Of a stretch of DNA of 64,000 bases, positions 2,478 through 59,243 are shown piece after piece (the stretch's first letter is position 1; every line of letters starts with the position of its first letter). Location: the sequence record MK327947.1; one strand, given 5' to 3'. The position numbers were made by a program, and so were the translations under genes. This DNA comes from Escherichia phage vB_EcoM_G5211. The notes beneath the pieces are model-generated. The model did no database searches. It was given only the letters and a program-made list of their open reading frames with translations, and was not told where the DNA came from.

Positions 2478-2573
2478 TGATTTTGTTAGACATGTAGTAT
2501 CCTCTTTTTAATTGCATAACGGAACTACAATTAAAATTATAACAAATATTTCACAACTTTTATCACCCAAAAA

Positions 2574-3302
2574 TTACTTGAGTGTGTGGAATTGGCTATG
2601 TTTAGTCTCTCGCACCTTGACAGACCCATCGCGTTTGATATAATAGATCAGTGACTTGAGGGTGTCGTGTACATACGCGTGCGGGAAACGCTCTGGATAC
2701 TTCTTCCAATCTGGAGTATTAACGATCCAGTCGAAAATCCACCACGGGCAGGAGTAGTAACCACGACCGCCACCGATCAAGCAAATGGTTGGACGGAAGC
2801 CGGTAAGATCGCAAAATGAATCAGTGTCATGTGCTGGGGAACGATGTTCTGCTTCGTCAGATAAAATGTTGGCTACCTGAGATTCCACTTTAACTTCCGG
2901 TACAACCACAATTTCAACTGGTACTGTGTGTGGTTTGGCTTCTTCTACAACTGTAACTGTAACTGTAATTGGTTCTTCTTTTTGTTCTGGTTCTTTCATT
3001 GCTTCAACCAGAGACGGATCAACTTCGTCGAATACTACTTTATCATCTGCGGTATCTGCTGCCAGAATAAGATCGTTAATACTGGTTCCTTCTGCCGGAG
3101 TTTCTTCTTCCATTTCGGATGCCAGTTTAGTTAATTCTGTTTCTACGAACTCGATCATGTTCTCTAGTGATAGCGTCTTTTTGACCTTGATGTCAAATTG
3201 TTTTGCGTAGTCCGCTAATTCTGTTTTAGCGGCTTTCTGTGCTTCTTTGTCGTCGGACGCCGCAATAGCGCGGAGTTCTTCGAAATATTCTTTATCAAAC
3301 AT
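2574..3302 (-). CDS. acidic protein at the position of T4 inh (prohead protease inhibitor); assignment by synteny only
   Basis: 242 aa, AGGAG RBS; sits between hoc and segD-like as inh does in T4. Confidence 0.4.
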   Translation of the reverse strand: MFDKEYFEELRAIAASDDKEAQKAAKTELADYAKQFDIKVKKTLSLENMIEFVETELTKLASEMEEETPAEGTSINDLILAADTADDKVVFDEVDPSLVEAMKEPEQKEEPITVTVTVVEEAKPHTVPVEIVVVPEVKVESQVANILSDEAEHRSPAHDTDSFCDLTGFRPTICLIGGGRGYYSCPWWIFDWIVNTPDWKKYPERFPHAYVHDTLKSLIYYIKRDGSVKVRETKHSQFHTLK

Positions 3303-23208: not shown

Positions 23209-23272
23209 TTTGATTCTCCGTTTGTTGTCTTGATGGGAGTATCTTACTACTCCCTTTAATCATTGTCAACTA
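23209..23272 (-). promoter_or_regulatory. early promoter/leader cassette
   Basis: TTGACA 23264-23269; GGGAGTAGTAAGATACTCCC palindrome spanning TAAGAT -10; GGAGAATC. Confidence 0.5.
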
Positions 23273-31298: not shown

Positions 31299-31368
31299 CT
31301 TGATACTCCTTAGTTGTTTTGGTATGGGAGTATCTTACTACTCCCGTGATATGCTGTCAACTGCTTTT
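31299..31368 (-). promoter_or_regulatory. early promoter/leader cassette
   Basis: TTGACA 31355-31360; GGGAGTAGTAAGATACTCCC palindrome over -10. Confidence 0.5.
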
Positions 31369-31518: not shown

Positions 31519-31592
31519 TTGATTCTCCTTAAAGTGTATTTCGTTTCGATGGGGGTATATTACTACCCCCGTTTCATGCTGTCAACTACTTT
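31519..31592 (-). promoter_or_regulatory. early promoter/leader cassette
   Basis: TTGACA 31580-31585; GGGGGTAGTAATATACCCCC palindrome. Confidence 0.5.
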
Positions 31593-51009: not shown

Positions 51010-53790
51010 ATGGCAGATTTACAGAGAATCCAATTTAAAAGAACAAGTACGGCAGGTCGCAAGCCGGATGCGAATATTCTAACTCCGGGTGAACTTGCTA
51101 TTAACCTAGCGGATCGAGAACTATATACAAAAGATGACAGCAATAATGTAATTACTTTGGGACACTTTCGCGGTGAGTTGCCATCTGATGCAAATTTAGA
51201 TAATTATGGACCTACTGGTAAATTTACTGGCGTTTGGTCTAAATCAACTTCAACAAATGCGCAGCCAGCAAATAAATTCCCAGAAGAGAATGCTGTAGGT
51301 GTATTAGAAGTATTTGTGGCTGGTCAATTTGCTGGCACTCAGCGTTATACTGTTCGGTCTGGTAACGTTTATATCCGTTCTTTGTCTGCGAAATGGAATG
51401 GCGTAGATGGTCCATGGGGTCCGTGGCGCAATATTCAAACTGGCACACGTCCACTATCAACTACACTAGACTTGAATACTTTAGGTGATGCTTCTCATTT
51501 TGGGTTATGGCGAAATAGTTCAAGTTCCATTGCATCATTTTCTCGAAATTACCCAGAAGAAGGTGGTCTCGCGCAAGGTCTTTTAGAAATTTATGAAGGT
51601 GGTAACTATTCTCGCACGCAACGTTATACTACCCGAATGGGTGTTGTATATGTTCGTTGTCTTGCTGGTGCATGGGATCCAGAAGCTCCGAATTGGGGAC
51701 CGTGGCAACAAGTAGGTATGGTTACTCCCAACACATTCTATGACGGGGATCTTAATAATTTTCGTTCTCCTGGCTTATATAATATTTTAGGCACTGATGC
51801 CGTTATTAACCGTCCAGTTGCAGAAGGTGTTCCGGTTGAGATGACCGGATTGCTTGAGGTTAAACAGCGTGCTTCCGGTGGCGCTATTTTCCAACGTTTC
51901 ACTACCGCAGGAACGGGATCTACTACCCGTGGTCGTGTTTTTGAACGTGCAATGACAAATAATATCTGGGGAAATTGGCATGAAGTATATACATCTTATT
52001 CTCTGCCAATTACTTTGGGTATGGGTGGTATTAAAACTCAATTAGCGGAGCTAGATTGGCAAACATTTGATTTTGTTCCTGGTAGTATGTTTAGCGTTCC
52101 TTTGAACAAAATAAAGAACATGCCAGCAAATATGGATTGGGGTGCGATTGACGGAAACTTGGTTATGTTTTCTGTCGGTCCTAGCGAACACACTAGCACA
52201 GGGCGTACTGTTCAGGTTTGGCGTGGTACTGTATCCCAGACAAACTACCGTTATTTTGTCGTTCGTGTGTTCGGTAATTCTGGAAATAGAACTTGTACAG
52301 TTCGCCGTGTTGTTCTTGAAGACGGATCACATACTTGGACTGCTAAACAAGATTTTAATGGTGCTGTCAACTTTGGTGGTTCGACAACTTTTAAGTCCAC
52401 TACAACTTTTAACACAGAAGTTAAATTCCGTTCATCCAATGCATTTAAAATGTATGGCGGTAATTTTGGCACAATTTTCCGTAATGATGGTGAAAGTCTT
52501 TATATTCTTTCCACCGACGAAAATGATCAAGATGGAAACTTTAATACAAATAGACCTTTCCGCTATCAATTAAAAACTGGCGATGTTACTTTGGGTGGCA
52601 CTAGCGGTGCTAACGCTTTAGTATTAAAAGGCGGTTCTCTTGCTGCTACCTTTAGCGGTGATGTTAATTTAAGTAAAGGTACGCTGACGTTTGAAGCGGG
52701 TGGTAAGCAATCACGCGATTATTTCCGGTTTAATCATTGGGGTGATAGCAATAACGCTCGTGATAACATTATTCAGTTAGAAGATAGTAAAGGCGCTCAT
52801 TTTTCCACTGAACGTACTTTAGCGACTGGTGCAATTAAAACTAAATTCTTTGGTGAAGTTGAATCAACTGGTCGATTGACTATTAAACGTCCGGGTGGTG
52901 CTATTGTATTATCGACTACAGCCAGCAACGCTTTGCATATTCGCGGTGACGTAGACGGGAATGGTAACTGGTATATTGGTAAAGGTGGTGCTGATAATTC
53001 GCTAGCATTTTATAGCTATGCTACTCAGGCGGCAGTACATATAACAAACAATGGTGAGATTGCGTTAAACCCGCAAAATACCTTAATGGTTAACGTTAAC
53101 CGCGATCGTATGTATATCAATGGTGCAAGTTGGGTTGCCAGACAACCAGGTGATTGGGGCAACCAATGGCGAGTAGAAGCTCCATTATTCGTTGATCATG
53201 GTTATGTTGGTCAAGATAGTTATTATCCTATTCTTAAAGCAAGAAGCGTTATAACCAATCAAGGATATAGCACCGCTGTTGACTTTGGTATGCGTCGTAT
53301 TCCATCACAGTGGGGGCAAGCAATCATTCGTGTCGGATCCACGGAGGCTTCTCCTGATGCTGGACACCCACAAGCTGTGTTTGAATTCCATCATGATGGG
53401 TTCTTTTATACACCAGGAAATGGTAGCTTTAGCGATGTGTATATTCGTTCTGACTCCCGTCTTAAGATTAATAAAGAAGAGTTAGAAAACGGAGCACTTG
53501 AAAAAGTATGCCGTCTGAAAGTTTATACTTACGATAAAGTTAAGTCTATTAAAGATCGTAGTGTGATTAAACGTGAAGCTGGTATTATTGCTCAGGATCT
53601 TGAAAAAGAATTGCCGGAAGCTGTATCTAAAGTTGAAGTTGATGGATCTGATGTTCTGACAATTTCTAACTCGGCAGTGAATGCTCTTTTAATTAAGGCT
53701 ATTCAGGAAATGAGTGAAGAAATTAAAGAATTGAAAACTCCTTTCTTTACTAAAATTGCTCGCAAAATTAGTAAATATTTTAAATTCTAA
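51010..53790 (+). CDS. 37: gp37 long tail fiber distal subunit with C-terminal intramolecular chaperone domain
   Basis: N-terminus MADLQRIQFKR..GELAINL..TKDDS like T4 gp37; C-terminal ~113 aa carries SDxRLK ... AGIIAQDLEKELPEAV (peptidase S74-type chaperone signature). Confidence 0.85.
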   Translation: MADLQRIQFKRTSTAGRKPDANILTPGELAINLADRELYTKDDSNNVITLGHFRGELPSDANLDNYGPTGKFTGVWSKSTSTNAQPANKFPEENAVGVLEVFVAGQFAGTQRYTVRSGNVYIRSLSAKWNGVDGPWGPWRNIQTGTRPLSTTLDLNTLGDASHFGLWRNSSSSIASFSRNYPEEGGLAQGLLEIYEGGNYSRTQRYTTRMGVVYVRCLAGAWDPEAPNWGPWQQVGMVTPNTFYDGDLNNFRSPGLYNILGTDAVINRPVAEGVPVEMTGLLEVKQRASGGAIFQRFTTAGTGSTTRGRVFERAMTNNIWGNWHEVYTSYSLPITLGMGGIKTQLAELDWQTFDFVPGSMFSVPLNKIKNMPANMDWGAIDGNLVMFSVGPSEHTSTGRTVQVWRGTVSQTNYRYFVVRVFGNSGNRTCTVRRVVLEDGSHTWTAKQDFNGAVNFGGSTTFKSTTTFNTEVKFRSSNAFKMYGGNFGTIFRNDGESLYILSTDENDQDGNFNTNRPFRYQLKTGDVTLGGTSGANALVLKGGSLAATFSGDVNLSKGTLTFEAGGKQSRDYFRFNHWGDSNNARDNIIQLEDSKGAHFSTERTLATGAIKTKFFGEVESTGRLTIKRPGGAIVLSTTASNALHIRGDVDGNGNWYIGKGGADNSLAFYSYATQAAVHITNNGEIALNPQNTLMVNVNRDRMYINGASWVARQPGDWGNQWRVEAPLFVDHGYVGQDSYYPILKARSVITNQGYSTAVDFGMRRIPSQWGQAIIRVGSTEASPDAGHPQAVFEFHHDGFFYTPGNGSFSDVYIRSDSRLKINKEELENGALEKVCRLKVYTYDKVKSIKDRSVIKREAGIIAQDLEKELPEAVSKVEVDGSDVLTISNSAVNALLIKAIQEMSEEIKELKTPFFTKIARKISKYFKF

Positions 53791-53794
53791 CAAC

Positions 53795-53813
53795 AAGGGG
53801 GCGTTGCCCCCTT
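53795..53813 (+). terminator. hairpin after gene 37
   Basis: AAGGGGGCGTTGCCCCCTT. Confidence 0.5.
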
Positions 53814-53826
53814 TGGAGTATAAATT

Positions 53827-53940
53827 ATGGCAGTAGTTGGTGTTCCTGGTTGGATTGGAAGTTCAGCCGCAAATGAAACAGGACAACGATGGATGAGTCA
53901 AGCGGCTGGTCAATTAAGATTGGTGTTCCTTGCTGGATGA
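53827..53940 (+). other. 38: out-of-frame N-terminal coding segment of gp38 (apparent -1 frameshift)
   Basis: GGAG RBS then ATG 53827 encoding [32 protein letters not shown], ending at TGA 53938; downstream gp38 body is in the -1 frame. Confidence 0.6.
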
Positions 53941-54626
53941 GTCAATTTGCAGGTCGCTCGCGAGAAATTATTCATACTGTAGGAGCAAACCACAATTTTA
54001 ATGGTCAGTGGTTCCGTGATAGATGCTTTGAAGCTGGCGGTGCACCTATTGTATTCAATATTGTTGGTGATATCGTTTCTTATTCTAAAGATGTACCGCT
54101 TTTCTTTATGTATGGTGACACTCCTAACGAATACGTTGTCCTTAATATTCATGGTGGTGTCCATATGTGGGGTCGAGGTGGTAATGGTGGATACACTCAC
54201 TCAGGTGGAGATGGTAACGGTACACAAGGCGGTCATGTTATTCAAAATGATATCGGTGGACGGCTTCGTATTTGGAACTACGGTGTTATAGCTGCTGGCG
54301 GTGGTGGCGGTGGTGGTATTGCATATCGTCCACACTCAGGGGCAAACTGGCAAGATATCGGTGGCGGTGGCGGTCGACCTTTCGGTGGTGCTGGCGGTGG
54401 CGGTTATTCCGGTGGTGCTGCTTCTTATGAAGGTCCGGGTGGTGGTTACAACTATGGTAACGCACACTCCGGCGCGGGTGGTAATGCTGGCGCTGCTGGT
54501 CAGAATGCATGGTCTGATGGCGGTAAAGTTCTTAAAGTTGGTGTTGGTGGTGCTTCTGGTCATGCCGTGTTTGGATCTTCTCCAACTTGGGGCGCTGTAG
54601 GGACAATTTATGGACCTTACATTTAA
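53889..54626 (+). CDS. 38: gp38 receptor-binding adhesin, T2-type (glycine-rich motifs); N-terminus as drawn is probably not native
   Basis: Multiple poly-Gly tracts ([21 protein letters not shown]) separated by variable segments; conserved [13 protein letters not shown]...[15 protein letters not shown] attachment region. Confidence 0.75.
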
Positions 54627-55649: not shown

Positions 55650-55898
55650 TTATTGGCGCATAGAAGCCCCTGAATCACATTTTGACGCTGTATGATGAAA
55701 ACAGGTAGCGTACCAGTCATCGGCTTGTTTGTCTTCGTCAGAAAACGCGTAATTGCGTTGTATGCCGTTTTCTACTTTGACCAGTGCAATAGCTGTTTCT
55801 GGAAGATCAATCAATCGGACAAAATCACCATCTTCCCACTCTACACGAGCAATATCATAGCCCATCTCAACGTATACAATCGCTTGTTCTAATTTCAT
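55650..55898 (-). CDS. hypothetical protein
   Basis: ATG overlaps upstream stop (ATGA). Confidence 0.45.
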   Translation of the reverse strand: MKLEQAIVYVEMGYDIARVEWEDGDFVRLIDLPETAIALVKVENGIQRNYAFSDEDKQADDWYATCFHHTASKCDSGASMRQ

Positions 55899-57612: not shown

Positions 57613-57900
57613 TTATTTTCGGTTGTGGTCACGATATGTTTTAAAATATCCCTCGTACCACGGTAAAACATCTGGATTTTTACCACTATACAGACCTTTA
57701 ACCATCATGTCAATAAGGCCATCCGGTGTTTGATAGTTTCCAGCTTTTATAAGCTCTCTGATTAAAATCTCTCTGTATATGTCTTTCGGATCTTCGTAAT
57801 CAACTTGTATTGTGGTTGTGGTCTCATTCAATTTGGTTTCTGGAGTATCTCGCATCACATCCCACCAATCTTTTGTGATCTTCATGTTATTGAATTGCAT
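57613..57900 (-). CDS. hypothetical protein
   Basis: ORF only. Confidence 0.45.
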   Translation of the reverse strand: MQFNNMKITKDWWDVMRDTPETKLNETTTTIQVDYEDPKDIYREILIRELIKAGNYQTPDGLIDMMVKGLYSGKNPDVLPWYEGYFKTYRDHNRK

Positions 57901-57911
57901 AATTTAACCTC

Positions 57912-58670
57912 TTACTTGCAAACGTATTGATCTACATCAATTGCGCCACCGAATGTAGGATGACGTTTTTCAAATCTAATAGTTCCGTCGTTTGGTTCGA
58001 AAACGGAGTATTCATATAGATCTTTCTTGCCAACATTCTTATAAAACCCGCCTTTAGTCATAACGGTTTCTTGTACGTTTGCTTTGTGTACGTTGTATTC
58101 GTCAATGTATACAAAATCAACCATCTTCCCATTTTTAATGGTTACTTTAAGATCTCCTGGTTGATTTCCATATTTTGCATACAGTGGCGCTTCTTTAATT
58201 TTTGTGGAAATTCCATCTTTCATACTCCACTCATAACGAACGGTGCATTGATAGGTAAAAGTTTCGACCTTCGGTTCTTCTACCACTTTTGCTTCCTGTT
58301 TCGGTTGTTCTTCTTCAACCTTCGCAGAAGTCTCTGAATCGCTTTCTGACGCGGTTTCTTCTTTAGGTAATACGTTCATCAAGTTTTGGATTTGAGCGTT
58401 GTATACAGCCTCCAGTGGCTGAATCTGCCCGATATTGATCATTGTATCACGAACAGTTTTATTCCAGTTTCGTTGCTCTTGTTTCAGAGACGGATCAATC
58501 TTAACAGCCTTAACATACACCTCATGAAGTTTAGAGTCCAGTGCGGAGATAGACTCATTAGCACAAATAAACTTCTCTGATTTGGTAGTAGCTTTAGCGC
58601 AATCAAAGGACGCAGCGTTAGCACCGAAAGCAGTAGCAGAAAGAACGATAGCAGCGATAATGTTTTTCAT
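57912..58670 (-). CDS. secreted DUF1311 (LprI-like) domain protein
   Basis: Signal peptide MKNIIAAIVLSATAFGANA; FDCAKATTKSEKFICANESISALDSKLHEVY...QRNWNK matches the DUF1311 pattern. Confidence 0.55.
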   Translation of the reverse strand: MKNIIAAIVLSATAFGANAASFDCAKATTKSEKFICANESISALDSKLHEVYVKAVKIDPSLKQEQRNWNKTVRDTMINIGQIQPLEAVYNAQIQNLMNVLPKEETASESDSETSAKVEEEQPKQEAKVVEEPKVETFTYQCTVRYEWSMKDGISTKIKEAPLYAKYGNQPGDLKVTIKNGKMVDFVYIDEYNVHKANVQETVMTKGGFYKNVGKKDLYEYSVFEPNDGTIRFEKRHPTFGGAIDVDQYVCK

Positions 58671-58740
58671 AATATATTCCTCAGTGTTTTGTCTTGATGG
58701 GAGTATCTTACTACTCCCTTAATCCGGTGTCAACTACTTT
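58671..58740 (-). promoter_or_regulatory. early promoter/leader cassette
   Basis: TTGACA 58728-58733; GGGAGTAGTAAGATACTCCC palindrome. Confidence 0.5.
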
Positions 58741-59179: not shown

Positions 59180-59243
59180 GTGATTCTCCTTTCGTTTGGT
59201 ATGGGAGTATGTTACTACTCCCATTTCTTTACGTCAACAACTA
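59180..59243 (-). promoter_or_regulatory. early promoter/leader cassette
   Basis: TTGACG 59232-59237; GGGAGTAGTAACATACTCCC palindrome. Confidence 0.5.

Follow-up and report, generated by a model that had tools for sequence, protein, structure and literature searches.

LprI of Mycobacterium tuberculosis joins a DUF1311 domain (Pfam PF07007, LprI) to an MliC domain, and the latter reportedly suffices for lysozyme resistance (PMC7933661). ScwA of Salmonella, a soluble periplasmic PF07007 protein with functional disulfides, raises the level of MltD and lyses the cells if overproduced (PMC7933661). In enterohaemorrhagic Escherichia coli (EHEC), the DUF1311 protein Etsi4 rescues the toxicity of Etse4 (PMC12981562). 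In Pantoea, orphan immunities with an LprI domain adjoin lysozyme-like effectors (PMC9796082), and the pesticin-domain effector Pse15 is functionally paired with Psi15, a protein with an LprI domain (bioRxiv 10.64898/2026.08.01.741415). LprI-domain proteins are predicted to be the immunity partners of periplasmic cell-wall toxins, with experimental support in two cases, one of which involves a pesticin domain. The toxic domain of pesticin is itself a homologue of T4 lysozyme. Among the T4-type phages, superinfection exclusion is understood for two proteins only, Imm and Spackle. The latter, the product of T4 gene 61.3, is a single 75-residue helical bundle that inhibits the tail lysozyme gp5 and excludes superinfecting phage. 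Spackle is highly conserved across its homologues, of which UniProt holds 178 (PMC7677548), and we found homologues in 927 phage records. Here we analyzed a stretch of 64,000 nucleotides of Escherichia phage vB_EcoM_G5211 (MK327947.1), referred to as the window, and in it the orthologue of RB49p262 (gene 262), which encodes a secreted DUF1311 protein with a second, polymorphic module.

The phage is a Krischvirus, that is, an RB49-like T4-type coliphage, and the window represents ~64 kb at the right-hand side of its genome. The nucleotide identity of the window is 99.2% to vB_EcoM_G2248 and 97.8% to RB49. The gene is matched over its full length by PHROG 14799 (E=2e-156), and its annotation is 'hypothetical protein' in every phage record, those of RB49 and G2248 included. 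A search for paralogues in the phage genome returned none. The gene and the parts of its product are as follows.

57912-58670, minus strand: the whole gene, RB49p262 orthologue, in the list of open reading frames (ORFs) with an ATG start and 252 codons plus the stop codon.
58614-58670, minus strand: Sec-type signal peptide, residues 1-19 (MKNIIAAIVLSATAFGANA), with n-, h- and c-regions recognized by inspection.
58365-58613, minus strand: DUF1311/LprI-type helical domain, residues 20-102, with Cys24 and Cys36, from the Pfam PF07007 match and the helices predicted by AlphaFold2 (AF2).
58266-58364, minus strand: acidic low-complexity linker rich in E, K, P and Q, residues 103-135, with a predicted local distance difference test (pLDDT) score below 50 for residues 104-131.
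57915-58265, minus strand: polymorphic C-terminal domain, a predicted beta-barrel, residues 136-252, class A allele, with the invariant Cys142 and Cys251.

The division into a constant and a variable part is based on the alignment of 20 homologues from a large protein collection. Residues 1 to ~125, comprising the signal peptide, the DUF1311 domain and the linker, are nearly invariant across the set, and the linker differs in length by a 12-residue deletion in one homologue (P0002) and by insertions in two others (P0012 and P0016). In the C-terminal domain (residues ~136-252), Cys142, Gly153 and Cys251 are the only invariant positions. Clustering of this domain at 60% identity or more gave eight classes, with 15-59% identity between classes, and all of the alleles could be placed on a single barrel framework that keeps the invariant cysteines. 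The polymorphic C-terminal barrel is the most distinctive feature of the protein, and it is the half that had been overlooked in a preliminary description of the gene made from the sequence alone.

In the full-length AF2 model, the C-terminal domain is all-beta and confidently predicted. We also modeled the C-terminal domain by itself, with alignments that were shallow for all AF2 models (13-20 sequences). The domain is predicted to be an eight-stranded meander barrel (pLDDT 90.2, predicted template modeling score 0.82), with one of the invariant cysteines early in the first strand and the other at the end of the last strand. The model has the architecture of the MliC/PliC inhibitors, a small eight-stranded antiparallel barrel closed by a cysteine pair of the terminal strands. 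Fold comparisons of the barrel (the two values of each comparison in parentheses) matched it to Brucella PhiA (7dpy; 7.2, 2.5), Neisseria ACP (6gq4; 6.4, 2.7), Brucella PliC (4mir; 6.2, 2.5, at 19% identity) and Salmonella PliC (3oe3; 5.8, 2.8). ACP is described as a disulfide-stabilized eight-stranded barrel (PMC5507604), as is predicted for the phage domain. The barrel matches of the fold searches also include ligand-binding barrels such as LolA, YceI and lipocalins, and Foldseek gave no match in the PDB at E≤1e-3.

A HMMER search of 1.84 billion representatives with the C-terminal domain returned its own family and low-complexity noise only, and the sequence searches of the PDB returned nothing credible; a match to PhoU (E=0.0016) among the latter was judged spurious. 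The C-terminal domain is a sequence orphan. By eye, membership in the MliC/PliC family appeared plausible (YQC…FVY…TKGGFY…YVCK compared with E. coli MliC), and it was rejected at the sequence level. PF09864 did not match any of 13 C-terminal alleles at E≤10, and hhalign of the domain with an alignment of MliC/PliC from E. coli, P. aeruginosa and Brucella gave a probability of 0.3%. The hallmark motifs of MliC are SxSGAxY and YxxxTKG, neither of which is conserved in the barrel alleles. As modeled, the barrel appears to share only the general fold with MliC/PliC.

The distribution of the classes among the phages is uneven. Class A is carried by 44 isolated Krischviruses, and 42 of these are at least 99% identical at the protein level. 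A second class is found in 11 records that represent nine phages, Phi1 and GEC-3S among them, and a third in UPWr_E1; all twelve are ~36% identical to class A. The barrel class of JSE was missed by tblastn with the class A domain. RB49, Phi1 and JSE correspond to classes A, C and E, respectively. At the DNA level, the window is 88-100% identical (mostly at least 94%) to Phi1, JSE and UPWr_E1 up to position ~58300, which is within the linker, compared to 23-62% through the C-terminal domain. The left recombination breakpoint is at ~58290-58300, where the identity to Phi1, JSE, UPWr_E1 and the E. coli copies of the gene (see below) collapses. In the sliding identity profile it recovers in an island of ~50 nucleotides where gene 262 meets the next gene.

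57613-57900, minus strand: downstream gene, RB49p261 orthologue (gene 261), 95 residues, 11 nucleotides past the stop codon of gene 262, with neither a signal peptide nor a Pfam family.

The first ~50 nucleotides of gene 261 constitute the right-hand conserved arm of the cassette, and the body of the gene is itself allelic. At least two allelic types of gene 261 are seen, one in the window phage, RB49 and UPWr_E1 and the other in Phi1 and JSE, and the central motif LIKELI(K/R)AGNYQTP.GLID.MV is kept across the types. The swapping unit is an intragenic cassette: the 3' half of gene 262, with or without gene 261, between the linker-coding repeats and the first 50 nucleotides of gene 261. The barrel exists as at least eight discrete, old alleles, which are traded by homologous recombination between two conserved arms: the N-terminal module with the linker forms one arm, and the start of gene 261 forms the second. 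Discrete and old alleles that are stably maintained in both virulent and temperate phages suggest specificity types under balancing selection.

This arrangement resembles the polymorphic toxin/immunity loci in its sharp border, in the near-identical N-terminus set against unrelated-looking C-terminal alleles, and in cassette replacement by recombination. It differs from them in that gene 262 has neither a co-varying partner nor a sign of toxicity. A toxin-immunity pair with gene 261 was considered and rejected, since gene 261 encodes no signal peptide, is the same for barrel classes A and B' and survives in prophages only as a 26-codon remnant. We found no paper on a phage protein of the RB49p262 type in the literature, and none on the two-module architecture with an orphan polymorphic barrel, on the intragenic cassette boundaries or on the exchange with E. 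coli prophages. Arbiol et al. tabulated 23 genes with less than 90% identity between phi1 and RB49, and gene 262 is probably among them.

The same cassette is found in bacterial chromosomes. The LprI-family gene is present in 26 of 5426 complete E. coli genomes, every copy being chromosomal. The copies are 94-96.5% identical to the window gene over the first ~380 nucleotides, and each occupies the outermost gene position in a prophage that has inserted into hicB, adjoining hicA-yncJ-rlhA. The identity to the virulent phages begins at the ATG and ends in the linker; the promoter-early stem-loop (PeSL) promoter that precedes the phage gene is apparently absent. In prophage contigs of IMG/VR, classes D, F and B occur at this prophage locus, with flanks that are 95-98% identical. 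The class B and class D prophage copies keep a remnant of the Krischvirus gene 261, of 52 nucleotides or 26 codons. These features indicate gene flow from a T4-type phage into the prophage, and they show repeated replacement of the cassette at the prophage locus, with the N-terminal module and the start of gene 261 as the homology arms. In E. coli O55:H7 DEC5A (locus L012, 10034-10342) the prophage sits in hicB at its 3' end; the annotation gives hicB as a truncated pseudogene, and the hicA toxin gene is intact.

We then consider the constant half of the protein. The preliminary description had given a 252-residue ORF with a cleavable signal peptide and the DUF1311 pattern, in a T4-like phage. 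The ORF is exactly at 57912-58670, on the minus strand with an ATG start, and the 97.8% nucleotide identity to RB49 places the phage as proposed. Inspection likewise bears out a classical Sec signal peptide, MKNIIAAIVLSATAFGANA followed by ASFDC, with K2 in the n-region, a hydrophobic core of 13 residues (mean Kyte-Doolittle value 2.28), an A-N-A cleavage motif (between ANA and AS) and, as judged by eye, no lipobox. The signal peptide is kept in all homologues, and its AF2 pLDDT is below 50. The DUF1311 assignment is confirmed by the Pfam search, in which residues 24-76 match profile positions 1-71 of 106 of PF07007 LprI with E=1.4e-5 and 25.8 bits, above the gathering score of 22. The threshold is also passed by four of the alleles (P0005, P0009, P0013 and P0019) and by the divergent homologues of Klebsiella phage Marfa, Aeromonas phage CC2 and the lambdoid phage ev099. 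The motif FDC..A....E..IC.....S..D......Y...QR.W is unchanged across these three homologues and the window protein. The residues that the preliminary description had picked out, namely the cysteine pair and those of E..IC, D, Y and QR.W, are indeed invariant in the homologue alignments (C24, E32, I35, C36, D45, Y52, Q66, R67 and W69).

AF2 predicts helices at residues 30-37, 39-58, 62-80 and 83-98 of this domain, with block-mean pLDDT values of ~64-83, and the best 50 Foldseek matches in the PDB included none to the N-terminal domain. Amino-acid identity of the N-terminal part is at least 93% among the homologues; including two outliers (P0020, a metagenomic relative, and phage UPWr_E1) lowers this to at least 83%. 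The proportion of synonymous differences (pS) in this part is 0.08-0.20, and the ratio of non-synonymous to synonymous differences (pN/pS) is 0-0.15 in most pairs, with a maximum of 0.30 in pairs that involve UPWr_E1. Appreciable synonymous divergence with nearly no non-synonymous change attributes the constancy of the N-terminal part to purifying selection, and not merely to a recent sweep. A profile search with the N-terminal domain (the second word-index search) retrieved only a few stand-alone DUF1311 proteins of ~100-150 residues.

The DUF1311 similarity and the PeSL context of the gene are already known. Nolan et al. (2006) listed ORF260c of RB49, probably RB49p262 under an older numbering, with DUF1311 at E=0.2. 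The UniProt entry Q7Y3G7 (RB49p262) bears the name 'Lysozyme inhibitor LprI-like N-terminal domain-containing protein', and the E. coli copies are named 'lysozyme inhibitor LprI family protein' by the NCBI Prokaryotic Genome Annotation Pipeline. Searches of the protein with NCBIfam and PADLOC gave nothing meaningful; a very weak PADLOC match of residues 54-111 to the candidate defense protein PDC-S13 (E=0.012; the E. coli copy P0019 matches at 0.0044) is probably due to chance. In Marfa, CC2 and ev099, the protein has a C-terminal domain of a type other than the Krischvirus barrel, probably PHROG 4675, again with two cysteines. In ev099 (locus L015, 2501-3199), the gene for the secreted LprI-family protein lies between an ea22-like gene and xis/int, an accessory position in a temperate phage.

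Gene 262 lies in the early-transcribed hyperplastic region, with gene 52 (topoisomerase) on one side and the holin gene t on the other, the latter ~2.3 kb away. Its expression signals are listed here.

58677-58682, minus strand: Shine-Dalgarno sequence GAGGAA, 6 nucleotides upstream of the ATG, read from the sequence.
58699-58733, minus strand: PeSL cassette, with the -35 element TTGACA, a 17-nucleotide spacer and the -10 element TAAGAT within the stem-loop GGGAGTA…TACTCCC.
23235-23269, 31326-31360, 31551-31585, 58699-58733 and 59203-59237, all minus strand: the five PeSL copies of the window.

The promoter scan scored the PeSL promoter upstream of gene 262 as sigma70-like, with 10/12 matches. 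The 35-nucleotide element, TTGACA-N9-GGGAGTAGTAAGATACTCCC, occurs in five copies in the window with 0-3 mismatches, compared to an expectation by chance of 0. The 'promoter-early stem-loop' cassettes were defined in RB49 and phi1 (Arbiol et al. 2010, PMC2839356), and the element of the window agrees with the published one, a sigma70 consensus promoter with a GC-rich stem-loop (PMC2839356). With a PeSL promoter and a Shine-Dalgarno sequence of its own, gene 262 is very likely expressed early and driven by its own promoter. It resembles the PeSL-flanked ORFans of RB49 and phi1 in its location in the same hyperplastic region, in the canonical PeSL directly upstream and in the sharp difference between RB49 and phi1. 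Unlike these, it swaps an intragenic cassette instead of a whole ORFan from PeSL to PeSL, and it is exchanged with a temperate prophage as well.

As to function, we tentatively lean towards an early, soluble, periplasmic factor of envelope protection (superinfection exclusion or 'orphan immunity'), a shield against incoming cell-wall hydrolases, while holding it short of probable. The early-expressed protein, with its two modules on a flexible acidic linker and its four conserved cysteines, would bind and neutralize peptidoglycan hydrolases that enter the periplasm from outside. Candidate targets would be the T4-lysozyme-type domain in the gp5 tail spikes of superinfecting phages, or muramidase toxins made by competing bacteria. 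The constant DUF1311 module may act as the inhibitor of, or the anchor to, a conserved target, either the T4-lysozyme-type muramidases (incoming gp5) or a conserved host wall enzyme. The polymorphic barrel, with a predicted general architecture as in the hydrolase inhibitors MliC/PliC, ACP and PhiA, would add or set the specificity for a variable, foreign target. The gp5 of Krischviruses carries a PF00959 Phage_lysozyme domain and the endolysin of RB49 is of the Peptidase_M15_4 type; the endolysin being a peptidase and not a muramidase, a muramidase inhibitor would not block the phage's own lysis. The outermost position in the prophage cargo is typical of accessory genes that protect the lysogen, and we count it in favor of protection. 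The discreteness of the alleles, together with the near-identity of class A in 42 phages, fits specificity types under balancing selection.

The known systems match this reading in part. With the DUF1311 immunities of T6SS (Etsi4 of EHEC and Psi15 of Pantoea), the phage protein has in common a signal peptide, a DUF1311 domain with an N-terminal cysteine pair, the periplasmic location, the existence of orphan copies and a link to the neutralization of externally derived proteins that degrade the cell wall. Those immunities are described only as LprI-domain proteins beside a cognate effector gene, whereas the phage protein is phage-borne and has a linker and a polymorphic barrel. M. tuberculosis LprI shows the same module order, a secretion signal followed by DUF1311 and a small beta-barrel, the phage barrel being predicted, with its cysteine pair near the ends. 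In contrast to LprI, the phage protein is soluble and not a lipoprotein, and its barrel is hypervariable with no detectable MliC similarity, while MliC is conserved. T4 Spackle is likewise made early by a T4-type phage and exported by means of a cleavable signal peptide; it is small, has disulfide bonds and differs in being the single helical bundle mentioned above. Krischviruses have the gp5 lysozyme domain and no detectable Spackle: tblastn with T4 Spackle against 1-100 kb of RB49 and the window gave no credible match, the best (E=0.049) being inside gene 41, with 100-152 kb of RB49 covered only via the near-identical window. Homology of the N-terminal domain to Spackle was rejected, with an hhalign probability of 0.1% and the negative tblastn.

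Several points weigh against protection by hydrolase inhibition. PF07007 itself is without direct biochemical evidence of lysozyme inhibition, and the PF07007 protein ScwA confers no lysozyme resistance (PMC7933661). No effector- or toxin-like gene was recognized beside gene 262 in the Krischvirus or the prophage loci, where the neighbors are unannotated and mostly lack a Pfam match; as an immunity gene, gene 262 could only be an 'orphan'. Spackle and an LprI-like gene occur together in Klebsiella phage Marfa, which argues that the two are not simple substitutes. There is no co-variation of the barrel allele with the gp5 of the phage itself, which is at least 98.8% identical in all Krischviruses, and no foreign target that would drive the polymorphism of the barrel was identified. 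In Marfa (locus L013), the Spackle homologue is at 144-425 and the secreted LprI-like protein of 252 residues at 2501-3259, six genes apart with the primase gene between them.

The functional proposals of the preliminary description come out divided. It had suggested a lysozyme inhibitor, which gains from the DUF1311 immunity partners of cell-wall toxins and from the PF00959 domain of gp5. With resistance in LprI residing in the MliC domain, no direct evidence for PF07007 and a non-protective ScwA, the family name alone is no warrant for the term 'lysozyme inhibitor'. Its Spackle-like superinfection-exclusion factor agrees with the RB49-like genomes in which Spackle is not detected, and is weakened by the lack of homology and by the Marfa genome. 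Its third suggestion, modulation of lysis timing, found no support as far as the holin is concerned, because the holin is 98-100% identical whatever the barrel class. Co-variation of the allele was also absent for gp252 (89-100% identical) and for the tail-fiber tip: the window phage and RB49 are both of class A and differ in gp37/gp38, whereas RB49, Phi1 and JSE, of classes A, C and E, have similar gp37. With no co-variation with the holin, gp5 or the tail-fiber tip, whatever the barrel may recognize is not one of these self proteins.

A bolder form of the envelope-protection reading, which we regard as doubtful, would make the barrel a set of at least eight interchangeable specificity modules on a constant DUF1311 scaffold. 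In such a polymorphic 'periplasmic immunity' each allele would act against a different foreign envelope attacker (a tail lysozyme or an ejected protein of a rival phage, for example, or a muramidase toxin), and virulent T4-type phages and resident prophages would swap cassettes in the course of an infection. If this were true, superinfection exclusion or immunity would gain a new class of modular factor, and ongoing virulent-temperate gene flow would gain a clear example. The recombination between a virulent phage and a prophage is in any event documented here at single-domain resolution. The combination of one constant and one allelic module makes the protein a directly testable candidate, since allele swaps should alter which phages or toxins are excluded. 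If envelope protection is correct, the widespread DUF1311 domain gains a phage-related function in a group of T4-type phages with no detectable Spackle. Krischviruses such as phi1 and JSE are used or proposed for phage therapy, where allele-specific exclusion, if true, would affect the interference among the phages of a cocktail and the resistance of lysogens with the prophage copy.

Among the other explanations, the one that survives best is a modulator of the ScwA kind, which we consider unlikely. Here DUF1311 would bind a host peptidoglycan enzyme, for example the lytic transglycosylase MltD, and alter its amount or activity; a further host partner, one that varies among strains, would be recruited by the barrel, and the outcome would be a tuning of wall remodeling, lysis timing or resistance to lysis from without. 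The precedent is ScwA itself, with its effects on MltD and on the integrity of the overproducing cell (PMC7933661); the extreme conservation of the N-terminal module fits a conserved host target, and the holin gene is near. However, the architecture of ScwA differs, PF07007 being C-terminal and its four cysteines placed differently. The modulator also leaves at least eight barrel alleles within one host species without explanation, the holin and gp5 are invariant, and carriage by prophages favors a protective over a lytic role.

Less likely again is an entry blocker in the manner of Llp, Cor or Imm. The barrel would mask the periplasmic face of a protein of the outer or inner membrane, or a lipid-linked molecule, on which the DNA entry of other phages depends, with a different component for each allele. 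Receptor blockers of phage origin, whether periplasmic or lipoproteins, are well known, T5 Llp and FhuA being an example (PMC9586334). The ligand-binding barrels among the fold matches (LolA, YceI, lipocalins), a linker long and flexible enough that it could bridge periplasmic distances, and the carriage by virulent phages and prophages alike are consistent with such a blocker. The allele is nonetheless independent of the phage's own receptor-binding module (gp37/gp38), the protein is soluble and not a lipoprotein, and the DUF1311 module is left with no obvious role. An anti-defense or decoy factor, which would counter an envelope-associated host defense or sensor through a barrel that diversifies to match variable defenses or to escape recognition, is improbable: a Tad2-like anti-Thoeris gene (55650-55898) lies in the same early hyperplastic region and discrete allelic replacement is common in anti-defense genes, yet the outermost prophage cargo position, apparently without the PeSL promoter, argues for benefit to the lysogen, the PADLOC match is very weak (E=0.012) and few periplasmic defense targets are known.

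Two other loci of the window are of note. The 82-residue ORF at 55650-55898 (minus strand), the RB49p255 orthologue beside the holin gene, matches the Tad2-like family Pfam PF11195 with E=8.3e-7 and 29.9 bits, compared to a gathering threshold of 25. Its product, in the same early hyperplastic region as gene 262, is a probable anti-Thoeris sponge (Thoeris anti-defense 2). The distal tail-fiber module at 51010-54626 (plus strand) is unlike that of RB49: a gp37 of 926 residues is followed by a separate, glycine-rich adhesin of the gp38 type with 245 residues (53889-54626), whereas RB49, Phi1 and JSE have one single gp37 of ~970-980 residues. This difference is a host-range module swap inside the Krischvirus genus.

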